DNA of 64,000 bases from a virus (IMGVR_UViG_3300031718_000177); one strand, 5' to 3'; shown: positions 4,588 through 64,000, numbered from the stretch's first letter. Notes: generated by a model not told the origin, from the sequence alone. A program made the numbers and translations.

Positions 4588-5619
4588 TCACTTGTGTTCT
4601 TTCATCACGCTATCGAAGAAATCAACTAACCAGTTCTTTTCGGGCATTTTATCCGTTTCATATAAAGGTCGCCACTCGGGCCAAAGTACATCTTCTAGGT
4701 TGTTCAAGTGGAGCAGCTTAGGATTGCTTTTCAGATCAGCGATGCCAAAACCTGACCTTTTGATAAAGGCACCAACTTCGCCAGTCGTTGTCGTGCCATA
4801 ATATTGATAGCCACCATAAGCATAAGCTGTGCCAGGATAATTCGCACTTGGTTTTGGTTCTTCGAGTTTATCGGCAAGTGATTTACCATCTGCATATCGC
4901 TTGAAGAAATAACACAAGCCCAAACTGTGCATAAGATTTGTCTTTAAGTTACTTATGTCTCCGGTTTGATAAACATAATTTGCCAATATGCTAAAACTAT
5001 GTCCGCTATTTCTGACGTAACCAGAAAATACATAATGTAGGGCTTGGAAGAAATGTATTTTGGGATTTTTCTCCAATAACTTAACAATCAACCAAGGTAT
5101 TTGGGGTGTGCTATCGGCAAAACGATAACAACACAAAGCGGCATAGACACAATGTCTGCTTGCTCCTTTACCGTGAATAGTACAGTAGTTCCCTCCGTCT
5201 TTGGATTCAGCCGTGGTGCTTAACGGCATTAGGCCATGTTCTTTACAAAGTTCTACCCATCTGAGAAACTCAGTCGATGGAAGCACGCTCTTTAATGGTT
5301 GCTGCGGGGGTTCTACTTGCCAACCACCCATACCGTTCTGGATAAATTGCCCCTTACTATCCTTCATGTATATCGGTACTGAATTAGGGCGGCAGTTATA
5401 GATATAATCATTAAGTTTTCTGGTATAAGTTACATTTCCAAAGCACGCCGCATTTACCATTTCCGTTACTAAGGGTGGGTCATCATATGAAGTAAGTTTC
5501 ATCGATACATAATCGGTTGCAGGGGCAGCAAAGGGGATGGAGATATCGTACCAGTGGTTAGTCATCTTAATCTTTCGTAATTTGGTTAAGAACTTATACA
5601 ACACTATTCTTCTATACAA
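4588..5619 (-). CDS. hypothetical protein, aromatic-rich, flanked by the two secreted paralogs
   Basis: 343-aa ORF; no signal peptide; W/Y/F-rich composition compatible with an alpha/alpha-toroid enzyme. No family assigned. Confidence 0.55.
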   Translation of the reverse strand: MYRRIVLYKFLTKLRKIKMTNHWYDISIPFAAPATDYVSMKLTSYDDPPLVTEMVNAACFGNVTYTRKLNDYIYNCRPNSVPIYMKDSKGQFIQNGMGGWQVEPPQQPLKSVLPSTEFLRWVELCKEHGLMPLSTTAESKDGGNYCTIHGKGASRHCVYAALCCYRFADSTPQIPWLIVKLLEKNPKIHFFQALHYVFSGYVRNSGHSFSILANYVYQTGDISNLKTNLMHSLGLCYFFKRYADGKSLADKLEEPKPSANYPGTAYAYGGYQYYGTTTTGEVGAFIKRSGFGIADLKSNPKLLHLNNLEDVLWPEWRPLYETDKMPEKNWLVDFFDSVMKEHK

Positions 5620-6455
5620 TCGGATGGAAAATAATTATACTGAGGTTCCCAAGGCGGTAAAGGTTGCCTGTAAACCTTGGGGAAAGGGGCTGGGGGTATG
5701 TTGATGTCGGGTACTTTTAATTCATCGCTATTTTCATAACTCCCAAAGCCAATCAATCTTACTACTTTACCATAAACCACATGGTATTCAAGTGATTTAT
5801 CTTTCATGTACACCTTGGATGTTCTTGCGTCAATAGGTTCGCCACTGTAAACACAGTGCCATCTATTATCCTTGAAACAGTAAATAGCAGTAATTCCTTT
5901 AATCCATAGATATTGCTCGAACTTATACACTTTACGTAATCTCAAGTTTGTATCTTTAGCGAATTGGAAAAGATCACCGGTATATTTCTCCATTACTGCT
6001 GTCTGCTCTTCATCATATTGTTCGTTAATAAGGTCAATTTGCTTTAGGTCAAGATAGTATTTTACAGTTAGCAAAGGGAAAGTAGTGTTTGAGAACGCTC
6101 TTTTGTCCAGAACAATCCATTCGGAACGACGGCTATATTTAATTGCTGGACCAGGGAGCGTTACATCAGTTATATAATGTAGATTAGCCCGCCGTTTAAT
6201 CTCAGCAGAGACCGCATTATAGTGAAGCAAAGTTGGTTCGTTATCTTTATTTCTGAATGGTGTATTCAACCAATTTCTGGTTAGTTCATTCTTTAAGAAC
6301 TTTGCTTCGTTACTGTTATCTAGCCCTATGAACAGGTCTATCTTCTTTTCGCGTTCCTTCTTAGTAAGGCGTGGACGCAACGGAAAGATAGGACCAATTG
6401 CTTGTGTTTGGCTAGTGAGTAACAAAAAGACAAACATAGAAACAATAAACTTCAT
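5604..6455 (-). CDS. secreted protein, paralog B of the two-member family
   Basis: Signal peptide MKFIVSMFVFLLLTSQTQA; paralogous to 3621..4586. Confidence 0.6.
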   Translation of the reverse strand: MKFIVSMFVFLLLTSQTQAIGPIFPLRPRLTKKEREKKIDLFIGLDNSNEAKFLKNELTRNWLNTPFRNKDNEPTLLHYNAVSAEIKRRANLHYITDVTLPGPAIKYSRRSEWIVLDKRAFSNTTFPLLTVKYYLDLKQIDLINEQYDEEQTAVMEKYTGDLFQFAKDTNLRLRKVYKFEQYLWIKGITAIYCFKDNRWHCVYSGEPIDARTSKVYMKDKSLEYHVVYGKVVRLIGFGSYENSDELKVPDINIPPAPFPKVYRQPLPPWEPQYNYFPSDCIEE

Positions 6456-59380: not shown

Positions 59381-60277
59381 AAATATATATATAGTATGAA
59401 AATTATTATCGCTCTTATGCTTCTATTCTGTGCTTCTACTGCCCTGGCTCAGGATATAAAGCTTGAAGGAAAAGGGTCCGTTGGACATATCTCAGGATAT
59501 GCAGGGGCATCAAAATGGAATATTAGAATGCTTGTACTACGGCACTGCCCAGATGAGAACGGTGTTAGTGATGCCGCATTAGCGATGCAAGCCGCTAATT
59601 TAGGAGCCTCCAAGGGATTACACATTAAAGACCTTGGCGATTTTCGCGTGAATAGCGAGGGACTAACGGGTACCGAAGCCAAATTCGCATGGAACGAGCA
59701 AAAATATACTGGGGAAAGCCTCAAAGAGTTTATTGGTCGAGAGATGAAAGTTGATGCTAGGCCGGGCGATACATTTATTGTATATACCATCGGACATGGC
59801 GGAGAAGATGGCGGTATGGCAACATTAGGACAAAGAAGCGACTTTATGAATATTGTTGCTTCATTAAGCGAAGAGCAAAAACAGAGAACATTATGGTGGC
59901 AAATGAGTTGTCATGCGGCTGCATGTCTGCCGCCTATTTCGTCGCTGCCTGAAAAAGGACAAAAGTTATTCACCATGATTGCTAGTTCTACTGCCGAAAA
60001 TCTCAGTTATTTCGGCGTTGAGGGCGAAATCCTACAACAATTATTTGTTGCCTTAGCAGAAAATAGTCCATCTATAAATCCAAATAGAGGCAATACTATC
60101 ACTGCCGATGATTTGCGTGGGTTTCTTCTTTCAATAAATAGCGGAATAGATAAACTAGTTTTCGCCAGAAGTGGCGATACGGTAATATTTGGCGTTGGCG
60201 GATTCCCTCATGTACCTATTGTAGACGAGAATAATCCTCAAGGCACTTATCCTGATGACTACGTAACAGTGCCGTGA
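59375..60277 (+). CDS. secreted caspase-like (clan CD) cysteine peptidase (likely start at 59396, MKIIIALMLL…)
   Basis: Signal peptide MKIIIALMLLFCASTALA; His in TFIVYTIGHGG and Cys in TLWWQMSCHAAA, spaced as in clan CD peptidases. Confidence 0.55.
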   Translation: MHKYIYSMKIIIALMLLFCASTALAQDIKLEGKGSVGHISGYAGASKWNIRMLVLRHCPDENGVSDAALAMQAANLGASKGLHIKDLGDFRVNSEGLTGTEAKFAWNEQKYTGESLKEFIGREMKVDARPGDTFIVYTIGHGGEDGGMATLGQRSDFMNIVASLSEEQKQRTLWWQMSCHAAACLPPISSLPEKGQKLFTMIASSTAENLSYFGVEGEILQQLFVALAENSPSINPNRGNTITADDLRGFLLSINSGIDKLVFARSGDTVIFGVGGFPHVPIVDENNPQGTYPDDYVTVP

Positions 60278-60290
60278 CTTACTAATATTT

Positions 60291-60602
60291 CTATTGTAGA
60301 AAATCGTCTTTACCGTGATATTCTGGTTCGGGATGACGAGGTACGAAGTGGGTTTCCCACCACGGTCTATTATCCTCTTTAACTGGTGGTTGAGTTACAT
60401 GAGGATTACTTGCTTGAACCAGAGATTCAATTCTTCGTAGTAAAGTCAAGATTTCGCTACTAGATGAATCTAGTTTCTGTTCTAGCTGTACGATTCTTGC
60501 TTCAAGTTTTACAACTGGATTTGGACGATAGCCCGTTGGTTCAGGAGTAATCTTCTCTCCTACACTCAACCATAAAATCGCTTTTGTGATATTCCGTAGC
60601 AT
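60291..60602 (-). CDS. short leader-bearing protein
   Basis: N-terminus MLRNITKAILWLSVGEKITPEP (leader family); 103 aa. Confidence 0.5.
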   Translation of the reverse strand: MLRNITKAILWLSVGEKITPEPTGYRPNPVVKLEARIVQLEQKLDSSSSEILTLLRRIESLVQASNPHVTQPPVKEDNRPWWETHFVPRHPEPEYHGKDDFLQ

Positions 60603-60688
60603 TTTTTACAATCCTTGATAATGCGGACAATTACATGATCCCCGGATCCCACGACTTCGGAGCAAACACGCTAACAGAGGCAACGGCT

Positions 60689-62194
60689 TTAATTCTTGTT
60701 TGTCGCCAATAACTTTGGGTAATAGATAATATCATAATTGATTCCAGGTAGTAGATGTTGTTTCTGGTATTCGGCGTTAGCTACAAGTAGGTCCGAAACA
60801 ATTTTATCGGCTGCGACCTTAGTTAAAAAACTTGCTTGCTTTATCTCAGAACCCCAACTGTTACCATTTATGTAATAGCTTTTGTTTGACGTATTCTTGA
60901 TTATATACCTCTGTTCATCTTGTTTATCAGCTTTATAGGGCGTCAAGCAATGCGTAGGACATATTAATGTTTCTTTCCCAATCAACTTAGCGAAGTGTAT
61001 GTCTATTTTAAGAACAATATATGGTACATCTGGATATTCGGCGAAGGCAAGGAACTGCTTAGAGACACGCACTTTATCATTTGGCTTAATTGTGAAAGAA
61101 CTCGGAGTTGTGTTGTTTGGCGTGTGAAAATAACCACTCGGTTTAGTATTCGGCTTCCGTTCTTTTGAGTAAATTGTATCGCCTTTATCGACGTAATATT
61201 TATCTTTCTCATTCAGAACTTTAACCAATTCGTCAGCTTCCTTTGCGGTAATTTCAACAGCATCTTCTATCTTCCCGCTCCATCTATAAGGATATCCTAT
61301 GGAGGGCTCAATACAATAATAAGGGTAGTTAAGGTGCGACGATTTAACAACCCACTCTTTTTTGTCTTTCTTCATATCTATAGGGATGCCGCCATGCTTT
61401 CTTGCATTTTCCTTTGCTTCTTCTTCGGTTAGGTATGTCGCATTATCCAAATTGCCCCAAGGCCAAGCATGCTCACTGCTGCTGCCTCCATAAGTAGGAA
61501 AACCAAAATAAACGGGAGTGCCCTTAAAGTTCCATGTAATAACCCAGTTCTTTTCCACCTCCGGTTTATCAAGAGGCTTACCATTCACATCAACCGTGTT
61601 CGGAGTAACCATATCTACTCTAATTGAAATAATTGTGTTGTAAGTTCCCCAAGTAGCATAATAACGTCCTATTTCCTTTTTTGCCTCTTCCTTAGTGTAA
61701 AAAGAAGCATGTTGGAAATCATTTCGCCATTCACCGGAGCCATATGAGGCAGGAGACTTAGAATAGTAATACTTCTTATGCCCAACATGACTCGTGTGTT
61801 GGATAACCCAGATTTTGTCATTTTTGATTTCTATGGCATGGCCGCCGTGCTTTCTTGCTTCTTCCTTTGCTTCTTCTTCGGTTAAATATGTCGCATTATC
61901 CAAATCAGTCCAAGCGTAGCTAGTACCACCATTAAAACGAAGATAAATCTTGTCGCTCTCATAACCGTTATTATATTCAACAACCCAATTCTTTTCTTTG
62001 TTAAAAGTTCCATCGCCCATCACTGATTCGTACTGCTCTTGTGTAAGAGGAGGTATTTGAGAACTCCAACCATATGCACTGCCGTAGCCAACGGGGTTAG
62101 GAACATCTCTTACATAGCCGGGTGGTAAGCAATGTTCTACTGGTTCAGCGTCAATTTTCTGCCCTAGAACTGCTCTGACGATGTTTTTCAGCAT
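60689..62194 (-). CDS. leader-bearing protein with duplicated NLDNATYLTEEEAKE-ARKHGG modules
   Basis: N-terminus MLKNIVRAVLGQKI; two near-identical about 40-aa repeats plus two degenerate copies (ASFYTKEEAKKEI, ASFLTKVAADKIV). Confidence 0.65.
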   Translation of the reverse strand: MLKNIVRAVLGQKIDAEPVEHCLPPGYVRDVPNPVGYGSAYGWSSQIPPLTQEQYESVMGDGTFNKEKNWVVEYNNGYESDKIYLRFNGGTSYAWTDLDNATYLTEEEAKEEARKHGGHAIEIKNDKIWVIQHTSHVGHKKYYYSKSPASYGSGEWRNDFQHASFYTKEEAKKEIGRYYATWGTYNTIISIRVDMVTPNTVDVNGKPLDKPEVEKNWVITWNFKGTPVYFGFPTYGGSSSEHAWPWGNLDNATYLTEEEAKENARKHGGIPIDMKKDKKEWVVKSSHLNYPYYCIEPSIGYPYRWSGKIEDAVEITAKEADELVKVLNEKDKYYVDKGDTIYSKERKPNTKPSGYFHTPNNTTPSSFTIKPNDKVRVSKQFLAFAEYPDVPYIVLKIDIHFAKLIGKETLICPTHCLTPYKADKQDEQRYIIKNTSNKSYYINGNSWGSEIKQASFLTKVAADKIVSDLLVANAEYQKQHLLPGINYDIIYYPKLLATNKN

Positions 62195-62217
62195 TTTTGC
62201 GAAACTCCTGTCCCGTC

Positions 62218-62246
62218 AGCATATCAGGATTGGGATTTGATGTCAA
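62218..62246 (-). promoter_or_regulatory. sigma70-like promoter TTGACA-17-TATGCT upstream of 60689..62194, inside the tnpB 3' flank
   Basis: Minus-strand read TTGACAtcaaatcccaatcctgaTATGCT, about 25 nt before the ATG. Confidence 0.4.
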
Positions 62247-62259
62247 GTTTTTCAAGGAA

Positions 62260-63480
62260 CTAAAATGATGGTGACAATAATTTCTCAGTTCTACGACGAC
62301 CACTGCCACAAACGGCTGTAACCTTATCGTCTCCATGAGCGTTAATTCGGACGTGTCCCGTCCTATTTTTCCCTAAGTTTTCAATTAAACTTTGGCGATT
62401 AAAAGCAAAATCTTTAATGTTATTTGCGGCTAATACATCCCTATCATGTGTCCTACCGCATTCGCATGTCCATTCTCTTTCGTTAAGTTTAAGGTTACTG
62501 TTGATTTTGCCACAACTACACATTTTACTGCTCGGCTCAAATCTACCAATTTGTAAAATATTGCTTCCATACCACTCACCCTTGTATTGAAGCATCCTTA
62601 CGAAATTGCTCCAACCAGCCGAGGATATTGAATATGCTAAATTGTGATTCTGCAACATTTCCTTTACACTTAAATCTTCAAGACAAATAGATTGGTTCTC
62701 TCGTATTAGTCTTGTTGATAACTTTTGTAAGAAGTCATTTCTTTGATTTGCTACTTTTTCGTGAAGTAAAGCTAACTTCAATCTTGCTTTCTCTCTGCGA
62801 TTGCTGCCTTTTACTTTTCTATCTTTCCATCGTGAAAATAGTTTCAATTTATCTGCGGATTTCTCTAAGTATTTAGGATTTTCTACTCTCTCGCCAGTGG
62901 ACAGAGTAATAAAATGTCTCAGTCCCAAGTCAATTCCGATTGCTTTCTTTCTATCCGGTTTCCTTTTCTTTTTTGGTTGTTCAGTTGTTTCAACCACTAC
63001 CGAAGCAAAATATTTATTTGTCGGCGTCTTACTTATAGTAACTGTTTTAATCGTCCCGTTAAACTTGCGATGCAATGTTGCTTTAATATTTTTGATTTTT
63101 GGTACAGTAATTGTTTCCTTATCAAAATCTACTTTGTTACTTTGCGGACACTGGAACGACTGGTAACTTGATTTCTTCTTAAACTTTGGGAAACCATTCT
63201 TCTCTCGGAAGAAACGAGTATAAGCGTTGTCCAAGTTTCTTAATGCCATTTGTAGCGACTGGGCATTAACTTCGGTAAGCCATTCTATTTTTTGTTTCAA
63301 TTTAGTTAATTCGCCGTTCAGGTCTATACAAGATAGACCTTTCTTTGTTTCTTTATATGTTTGTATTTTAGTTTCTAGCCCCCAATTGTAAACAAATCTT
63401 GAACAACCAAAATGTTTGCTGAAAAGTGCCTTCTGTTCTTCTGTGGGATAAATCCTATATTTGTACGCTTTCAATATCAT
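62260..63480 (-). CDS. tnpB: IS200/IS605-family TnpB (OrfB), intact
   Basis: RuvC-I IGIDLG, RuvC-II ICLEDLSVKEM, zinc finger CSCGK…CECG, RuvC-III RDVLAANNI; 406 aa. Confidence 0.85.
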   Translation of the reverse strand: MILKAYKYRIYPTEEQKALFSKHFGCSRFVYNWGLETKIQTYKETKKGLSCIDLNGELTKLKQKIEWLTEVNAQSLQMALRNLDNAYTRFFREKNGFPKFKKKSSYQSFQCPQSNKVDFDKETITVPKIKNIKATLHRKFNGTIKTVTISKTPTNKYFASVVVETTEQPKKKRKPDRKKAIGIDLGLRHFITLSTGERVENPKYLEKSADKLKLFSRWKDRKVKGSNRREKARLKLALLHEKVANQRNDFLQKLSTRLIRENQSICLEDLSVKEMLQNHNLAYSISSAGWSNFVRMLQYKGEWYGSNILQIGRFEPSSKMCSCGKINSNLKLNEREWTCECGRTHDRDVLAANNIKDFAFNRQSLIENLGKNRTGHVRINAHGDDKVTAVCGSGRRRTEKLLSPSF

Positions 63481-63575
63481 TACAACTTATATAGTAATAT
63501 AATTTAGAAAAAATCTAATTTTTTCTAAATATTTAGAAAATTTTCCAAAATATACTCCACTAAATATAGAGAGTG

Positions 63576-64000
63576 TATGCGTTATAGGGCTGCAGCTAAT
63601 ATAAGTATCGAGTTTGAGAGCGATGACACTCATATTGCTGCTTCAAATAATTTCAAGAATATAATAGATAAACTTTTTGAGAGCAGCAAAATAGGCGACT
63701 ACAACTCATACTCATCACAAGTCAATTTGTTAAATGTACCGACCAAACGCCACCCAAAGAGAATCGGCGAGTTTACAATTGAGGAAGTTCTTCCGTATAT
63801 TACGGAATATGAGTCCTATAAAACATATACCGTAAATGGACAGAAATACGAAGTACGAATGAATATAGACAAGTACTTTGTGTTTCTCGAACATATCCAT
63901 TGTGCTGCTTGTAACTTAGAAGGAACAAAGATGATGTTGGAATTGAGTACGGAAGACATTCCTCATTTCAACTTGTACGGAGTTGATAATGGTAAGTTAG
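63576..64000 (+). CDS. hypothetical protein, partial (runs off the window end)
   Basis: ORF from ATG at 63576: MRYRAAANISIEFESDD…HCAACNLEGT…; no stop before 64000. Confidence 0.4.

Follow-up and report, generated by a model that had tools for sequence, protein, structure and literature searches.

A solo tnpB gene of the type carried by IS200/IS605 insertion sequences (IS) is located close to one end of a 64,000-nucleotide (nt) stretch of DNA, hereafter the window, from the viral genome IMGVR_UViG_3300031718_000177. The gene is read from the minus strand and lies between a divergent HNH endonuclease gene on its 5′ side and, on its 3′ side, a gene for a protein of 501 amino acids (aa), from which it is separated by a gap of 65 nt. 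A perfect palindrome stands just upstream, and the 3′ end of the open reading frame (ORF) carries the scaffold of an omega-RNA, or reRNA (Table 1). The window belongs to a metagenomic contig of 292,671 bp and 40% GC (L001; such handles denote individual loci throughout), and a contig of another data set, L002, is 100% identical over 12,350 bp. The sequence visible to us comprised 74 kb of this 293-kb contig, that is the window and 10 kb beyond its end, and statements made here on L001 refer to that portion. Solo tnpB genes are very common, in phages included, and the locus itself is therefore unsurprising.

Table 1. Features of the tnpB locus, with positions counted from the first nucleotide of the window; paired intervals give the two strands of a helix.
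Feature	Position	Strand	Basis
Omega-RNA (reRNA) scaffold	62271..62384	-	Covariance model R1, full model covered, 101.9 bits, E 2.7e-23
Scaffold helix 1	62363-62359/62353-62349	-	Covariation
Scaffold helix 2	62339-62336/62288-62285	-	Covariation
Scaffold helix 3	62331-62326/62300-62295	-	Covariation
Scaffold helix 4	62316-62314/62307-62305	-	Covariation
Scaffold pseudoknot (GACA with UGUC)	62357-62354/62276-62273	-	Covariation, outside the model
Right-end terminal (transposon-encoded) motif GTCAC	62271..62275	-	Match to ends of relatives
Predicted guide, 20 nt	62251..62270	-	Position 3′ of pseudoknot and right end
tnpB ORF, 406 aa	62260..63480	-	Pfam, PHROG and structure matches; RuvC triad and four Zn cysteines intact
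ACTATATAA motif	63487..63495	-	Invariant in 10/10 close relatives aligned; ends 6 nt before ATG
Retained proximal left-end region	63481..63565	-	Alignment with relatives
13+13 perfect palindrome and overlapping 20-nt palindrome	63502..63540	.	22-60 nt upstream of tnpB ATG
Sigma-70-like TTGACA-17-TATGCT, TG at extended -10	62218..62246	-	Motif scan; upstream of 501-aa ORFan
HNH endonuclease gene, 220 aa, divergent from tnpB	63577..64000 (5′ part)	+	Neighbour, outside element

Judged by its sequence, the 406-aa protein is a TnpB of the IS200/IS605 family with a complete set of catalytic residues. The Pfam models HTH_OrfB_IS605, OrfB_IS605 and Cas12f1-like_TNB match it with 78.3, 97.1 and 67.8 bits respectively, each above cut-off, PHROG 506 (‘transposase’) matches at E 1.9e-120, and the structures of ISDra2 TnpB (8bf8, 8exa and 8h1j) at E 2e-71. 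The RuvC residues D184 (GIDLG), E268 (LEDL) and D348 (HDRD) align with D191, E278 and D361 of ISDra2, and all four cysteines of the CxC...CxC zinc finger (C321/C323 and C339/C341) are present, so that ORF, Pfam and ISDra2 alignment agree with an earlier note on this DNA, which had recognised an intact TnpB with both sets of motifs. The CxC spacing of the zinc knuckles was considered as a possible defect and dismissed, the spacing of the second knuckle being shared by 23 of 85 close family members and hence normal. That note had also reported a missing tnpA, and this holds: no tnpA was found within 10 kb upstream or 62 kb downstream of tnpB, and the genes in the 10 kb past the window end include neither a Y1 nor a serine transposase gene. 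The partial ORF at the window end, with an ‘HIH’ suggestive of an HUH transposase, gave no Y1_Tnp match and is the HNH endonuclease gene instead. A second tnpB was sought in the window and in L001 and none was found; tnpB and scaffold are each present there as a single copy.

The closest TnpB proteins (P0002-P0011) are 69–74% identical, come from metagenomes only and are encoded at loci in unrelated contexts; the sister loci are L003, L004, L005, L012, L013 and L016-L021. The nearest TnpBs from genomes, at most 55% identical, belong mainly to metagenome-assembled genomes of Ignavibacteriota and Bacteroidota, and relatives at approximately 50% identity carry a divergent Y1_Tnp gene of 136 aa. 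A relative is present in 425 phage records, and a megablast of the locus against 50,697 phage records returned no match.

A guide RNA at the right end had been anticipated by the earlier note, which placed it in the 65-nt gap after the tnpB stop codon; such an RNA is indeed predicted, but its scaffold lies inside the end of the tnpB ORF, where a covariance search across the 3′ end recovers it. When the 3′ ends of relatives are aligned as DNA, the last ~110 nt of the ORF are strongly conserved, and the C-terminal tail of the protein is read in differing frames between relatives (SGRRRTEK versus CSVVV). Because the nucleotides are conserved while the reading frame shifts, constraint in this region acts at the level of the nucleic acid. 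A five-helix structure was read from 11 sequences, in whose alignment 95.9% of the cells are paired against 33–40% in slid controls, and was then built into the covariance model R1. This model has 45 matches in 86 sources, nearly all of them at tnpB 3′ ends; the exceptions include standalone or duplicated scaffolds in L003, L013, L044 and L049. Across the 39 distinct R1 sequences 96.4% of the cells are paired, as opposed to ~40% in slid controls, and compensatory changes occur in all but one of the 30 pairs (29 of 30), figures that favour the model since the alignment was fitted to it.

The model does not contain a pseudoknot of four pairs that joins the loop of helix 1 (GGACN or GGAAC) to positions −6 to −3 before the guide (NGUC or GUUC), and this pseudoknot is 92.8% paired against 13–50% in slid controls. 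In the window, an A peculiar to this copy of the loop pairs with an equally copy-specific U. Helices 1–4 and the guide-adjacent pseudoknot are thus backed by covariation in the scaffold family of the window copy. An Rfam scan of positions 60000–64000 at E≤10 yielded two chance-level matches (E 4–7), neither of them at the scaffold, and R1 gave only weak matches on bacterial-genome loci, which hence provide no clue to the host. An uncharacterised clade of metagenomic TnpBs thereby gains a clean omega-RNA model that is supported by covariation and has an exact boundary between right end and guide.

The fifth helix of the family is a GC hairpin of 9 bp between helix 2 and the terminal UA-NGUCAC. 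The window copy lacks it and has AUUAU in its place (GAGAA-AUUAU-UGUCAC). Every other R1 match above 30 bits has helix 5, which is reduced to 3–5 bp in L021, L005, L050 and L051, 3 bp being the shortest. One pair of helix 2 is also broken in the window copy (U.C).

The right ends of relatives consist of GTCAC or GTTAC in nine copies (L003 twice, L004, L012, L013 twice, L016, L019 and L021) and of GGCAC in L005 and L020; past this motif the sequences diverge at once, and the flanks are unrelated from copy to copy. Comparison of these ends places the right end of the window element at 62271, immediately after its GTCAC, and the predicted guide is therefore the adjoining 62270..62251 (CATCATTTTAGTTCCTTGAA), a length of 20 nt being assumed from TnpB systems (~16–20 nt). 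The scaffold encodes the last ~45 codons of tnpB, and the stop codon TAG (62262..62260) is situated in the flanking or guide DNA: the predicted guide starts 8 nt before it, contains it, and has only its last 9 nt in the 65-nt gap. A search of IMG/VR with the guide 16-mer found 48 exact matches, none extending beyond chance. In L013, two omega-RNA scaffolds stand in tandem after one tnpB (5091-5224 and 5226-5359); the second begins directly after the GTCAC of the first, whose ‘guide’ is the start of the second.

At the other end of the element, full-length left ends are seen in six independent copies (L012, L016, L018, L019 and two miniatures in L003), where they extend ~220 nt upstream of the ATG to a sharp boundary, TTATAAT followed by GGCGGCGTAAAACC; the loci that carry a full left end are L003, L012/L013, L016/L017, L018 and L019. 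The distal part is a GC-rich block of ~130 nt that folds far better than shuffled sequence (z = −4.2). In L016 (1281-1430), and at the equivalent places in L012, L018, L019 and L003, it is closed by GGCGGC/GCCGCC, and it is much larger than the classical IS200/IS605 left-end hairpin. Counting upstream from the tnpB ATG, the window copy resembles its relatives for ~85–95 nt, and the similarity then fades within a few bases of the HNH start codon. Neither the window nor L001 contains the distal block, and no TTATAAT boundary was found upstream of the window tnpB.

In full-length copies, the main stem of the distal block has the same base as the element's own helix 5, and a change in one is accompanied by a change in the other: CCGCA/TGCGG is found at the left and right ends of L016, and CCAYG/CGTGG at both ends of L019. 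Recognition of both ends by a single protein, Y1 TnpA, would be expected to produce such covariation (PMC10055086). The window copy has retained tnpB with its proximal upstream region, the core of the scaffold and the terminal motif, and is without the hairpins of both ends. Related genomes with tnpB at this locus but no terminal structures, as for a domesticated gene, had been named in the earlier note as a finding that would refute its reading; this is borne out in part, in that the window copy lacks the terminal hairpins, which points to an immobilised unit. Left and right stems covary in full-length relatives and are both lost here, and the locus illustrates how a tnpB unit can come to be fixed in a viral genome. 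The L003 miniatures lie in one viral contig (IMG/VR UViG 3300043543_000044; 1043-1685 and 4840-5667) and combine a full distal left end and a complete right end with scaffold, tnpB being missing or truncated. They resemble miniature inverted-repeat or palindrome-associated transposable elements (MITE/PATE-like), which implies recent mobility of the element family in a virus.

The palindrome upstream of tnpB had been regarded as consistent with an IS200/IS605 end and given 12-bp arms. It is real and perfect, but its arms measure 13 nt (63502-63514 and 63518-63530, with a loop of 3 nt), and they overlap a second palindrome of 20 nt (63521-63540). No other perfect inverted repeat in the window has arms of 12 bp or more and a loop of up to 10 nt, the mean in shuffled sequence being 0.03. 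A hairpin of other sequence occupies a similar position in four relatives, its 3′ foot 22–29 nt before the ATG, with stems of 16 bp in L004, 13 bp in L016, 10 bp in L019 and 8–11 bp in L005; it is degenerate in L012, L018 and L021. Its arms conform loosely to TTTAAGGAAAA/TTTTCCTTAAA; compensated variants are found in L019 (ACGG/CCGT) and in the window (AGAAAAAA/TTTTTTCT). Because the palindrome is kept at the same place before the ATG in relatives, and their left end extends ~130 nt further to the GC-rich block and TTATAAT, alignment identifies it as an internal part of the tnpB unit and not as its terminus, contrary to the former assignment.

The likeliest role of the palindrome is that of a control element of the tnpB promoter, an insulating hairpin being the main alternative. 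In IS605 elements, the −35 box of the tnpB promoter is overlain by oppositely oriented motifs to which Arc-type repressors bind (bioRxiv 10.64898/2026.09.24.754181). The ACTATATAA motif between palindrome and start codon may be a −10-like element for a tnpB transcript with a short leader or none. A recurring phage operator was also considered for the palindrome and rejected, its half-site occurring nowhere else in the window beyond chance.

These features of the ends bear on whether the element still moves, with the AT-rich palindrome serving as its left-end hairpin and a TnpA encoded elsewhere acting in trans. Such an element would account for the highly non-random palindrome, for a hairpin at the same place in several relatives with its sequence changes compensated, and for the retained GTCAC, and most tnpB elements are non-autonomous (PMC10055086). 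However, the palindrome is internal in full-length relatives, and its AT-rich hairpin is unlike the GC-rich hairpin of the right end, which the distal left-end stem does resemble and with which it covaries. The right-end hairpin itself is deleted in the window copy, there is one copy in the window and L001, and no boundary of TTATAAT type lies upstream. Continued mobility therefore appears quite improbable to us.

The interpretation that we favour, with moderate confidence, is a non-autonomous and probably immobilised tnpB-omega-RNA unit of IS200/IS605 type (IS1341-like, that is tnpB-only), eroded at its ends and residing in a phage-like genome. The unit would consist of a short upstream control region with the conserved palindrome, the intact tnpB and the scaffold embedded in its 3′ end. 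It would no longer be excised and pasted by a transposase, because the lost hairpins are presumably what Y1 TnpA binds, and would persist through vertical inheritance. Most tnpB genes stand without tnpA, TnpA requires the stem-loops of both left and right ends, and TnpB has been described as a homing nuclease (PMC10055086). If the TnpB encoded here loads an omega-RNA without stem 4, the counterpart in ISDra2 of helix 5, it could cut genomes that hold an uninterrupted target next to the target-adjacent motif (TAM). Were such cuts followed by recombinational copying, the unit would in effect home from one co-infecting genome to another, and it may still function as a homing nuclease guided by RNA. 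Between co-infecting phages, ‘transposon non-restorative homing’ has been listed among such processes (PMC13565253). The scaffold is a natural variant from which the guide-proximal stem is gone and in which the pseudoknot is kept; if active, it would point to a smaller functional omega-RNA.

Several points weigh against this interpretation. The TAM is probably TTAT-like, a proposal whose only source is relatives of ~70% identity. Elsewhere in the 293-kb genome, of which 74 kb were seen, there may be a tnpA or further copies. The ‘short left end’ could be a legitimate variant and not the product of erosion, given that L004, L005 and L021 likewise lack the distal block. The replicon looks like a huge phage, an assignment that rests on gene content and not on hallmark genes: 20 of its large ORFs were examined for hallmark genes and yielded auxiliary genes only, and neither a capsid nor a terminase gene was seen in the parts covered. 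One genome variant is known (L001/L002), so that no sign of purifying selection at the locus is obtainable. No empty site was found, exact look-ups of TnpB and of the 501-aa protein returning the same two identical contigs and IMG/VR scans with the 501-aa and HNH proteins returning no relatives. Finally, the ISDra2 omega-RNA has both stem 4 and a pseudoknot beside the guide, formed with an upstream loop, and stem 4 contacts the WED domain of the protein (PMC10097598); its loss may disable the ribonucleoprotein and leave the ORF as a recent relic.

Taken further, that last point describes a decaying relic, truncated at both ends, with an omega-RNA crippled by the loss of its guide-proximal stem and a TnpB that is nonfunctional and not yet disrupted. 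The missing distal left end and helix 5 agree with decay, as do the protein contact of stem 4 in ISDra2 and the broken pair in helix 2. Yet the ORF is of full length and retains every catalytic and zinc-binding residue, the deletion of helix 5 is clean and spares the 3′ strand of the pseudoknot, and the copy-specific A-U pair holds that pseudoknot at four base pairs; the natural variation in the length of helix 5, down to 3–5 bp in the four loci listed above, moreover suggests that its reduction is tolerated. We consider a relic unlikely, and assign a similarly small share to an intermediate between transposon helper and free-standing gene, in which an intact TnpB, its TnpA-binding ends shed and a minimal omega-RNA lacking stem 4 retained, would persist in a huge phage solely as an RNA-guided nuclease for homing or competition. 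The immobilised, end-eroded unit remains our preferred account of the locus.

Both flanks of the unit contain features relevant to a possible function for the phage. The junction 20-mer at the right end (CAC|CATCATTTTAGTTCCTT, 62254-62273) recurs with 17 of 20 positions identical at 63920-63939 on the minus strand, inside the HNH gene and ~440 nt upstream of tnpB; a second match of this kind arose in 0 of 100 shuffles. As a cleavage target it probably does not qualify, with mismatches at seed positions 7 and 10 and no TTAT neighbour; were the locus the intermediate just described, the copy could be an acquisition trace or a former target.

On the opposite flank, the sigma-70-like motif that the earlier note had reported in the tnpB-downstream interval is indeed present. 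Its −35 box starts 24 nt past the right end and 4 nt past the 20-nt guide. Promoter-like motifs number 12 in the 4-kb region, where 11.9 are expected, and those with an exact TTGACA number 2 in the whole window, where 3.1 are expected; position alone favours function, the motif being intergenic and the ATG of the 501-aa ORF being preceded at 8 nt by AGGAG. Because the DNA after the right end differs among relatives, the motif is part of the flank and did not arrive with the element; at most it serves the neighbouring ORFan gene. The proposal that the element had been co-opted for expression is accordingly not upheld: the motif lies outside it, is no commoner than chance, and the flanks of relatives are unrelated.

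A further alternative is an exapted TnpB in the service of the phage, for example in RNA-guided attack on competitors or in regulation of the neighbouring gene, its guide retargeted from the empty site. The loss of the transposon ends with retention of nuclease and scaffold would fit such a role, as would the position of the guide 4 nt upstream of the promoter-like −35 box and the rarity in shuffled sequence of a second junction match such as that in the HNH gene, and domesticated TnpB relatives (TldR) borne by phages are known (bioRxiv 10.1101/2023.11.30.569447). Nevertheless, the catalytic triad is intact, unlike that of TldR, and the guide is plain adjacent flank, as for any IS copy. Its 16-mer matches in IMG/VR are at chance level, and the HNH-gene copy has the mismatches and the missing TAM-like neighbour described above. 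Exaptation is, in our judgement, very unlikely.

A search of 5.8 billion proteins returned no homologue of the protein encoded by the 501-aa gene downstream of tnpB (60689-62194, minus strand). This protein contains …W..LDNATYLTEEEAKE.ARKHGG… twice, as an internal repeat, and shares an N-terminal MLKNI..A.L....KI with the product of the next ORF (103 aa; 60291-60602, minus strand). On the upstream side, the HNH gene is complete in L001 (9242-9904, minus strand), where Pfam HNH and HNH_5 match its product with 21.4 bits (at threshold) and 25.3 bits; genes for a protein-guided and an RNA-guided nuclease hence stand side by side. A 220-aa gene upstream of tnpB in L005 was examined as a recurring partner, and the two 220-aa genes are unrelated. 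After the HNH gene come two sulfotransferase-like genes and genes for an NTP-transferase, Cpn10 and a class-I tRNA synthetase; the HNH stop codon and the start of a sulfotransferase-like gene overlap by 4 nt. The replicon is otherwise composed mostly of ORFans and of auxiliary genes, which include a clamp-loader-like AAA protein, a PP-loop ATPase, a DnaJ-domain protein, adenylate kinase and tRNA-Gln.

The best-characterised system for comparison is the TnpB-omega-RNA pair of ISDra2 from Deinococcus radiodurans, with which the window unit has in common the domain order, the RuvC D-E-D and zinc-finger residues, a scaffold that overlaps the tnpB 3′ end and encodes the C-terminal tail, a pseudoknot in which an upstream loop pairs with the nucleotides that immediately precede the guide, and a guide that is the DNA past the right end (PMC10097598). 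The proteins are distant though clearly related; the window scaffold is without the guide-proximal stem, no tnpA is present in cis, and the TAM is probably TTAT-like where that of ISDra2 is TTGAT. Elements of IS1341 type, or non-autonomous IS200/IS605 elements, likewise have tnpB without tnpA, a retained right-end motif and distant relatives linked to Y1 TnpA, although their canonical members keep subterminal hairpins at both ends for TnpA acting in trans, and the window copy has lost both. Its metagenomic sisters belong to the same TnpB clade, fit the same omega-RNA model and agree with it in the ACTATATAA motif and in the position of the upstream hairpin, but most have helix 5.

Among phage genes, the free-standing homing endonucleases (Seg and Mob of T4, and the adjacent HNH gene) offer a parallel in being single-copy nuclease genes wedged between phage genes, with a proposed spread by cutting the allele that lacks the gene; target recognition in the window unit would differ in using an RNA guide and a TAM, not the protein. 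The nuclease-dead, TnpB-like repressors of the TldR type, some of them encoded by phages, are also derived from TnpB and have an adjacent guide RNA outside a functional transposon. TldRs, however, have lost the RuvC residues and direct their guides at promoters elsewhere, whereas the TnpB of the window keeps D184, E268 and D348 and has its own flank as its predicted guide.

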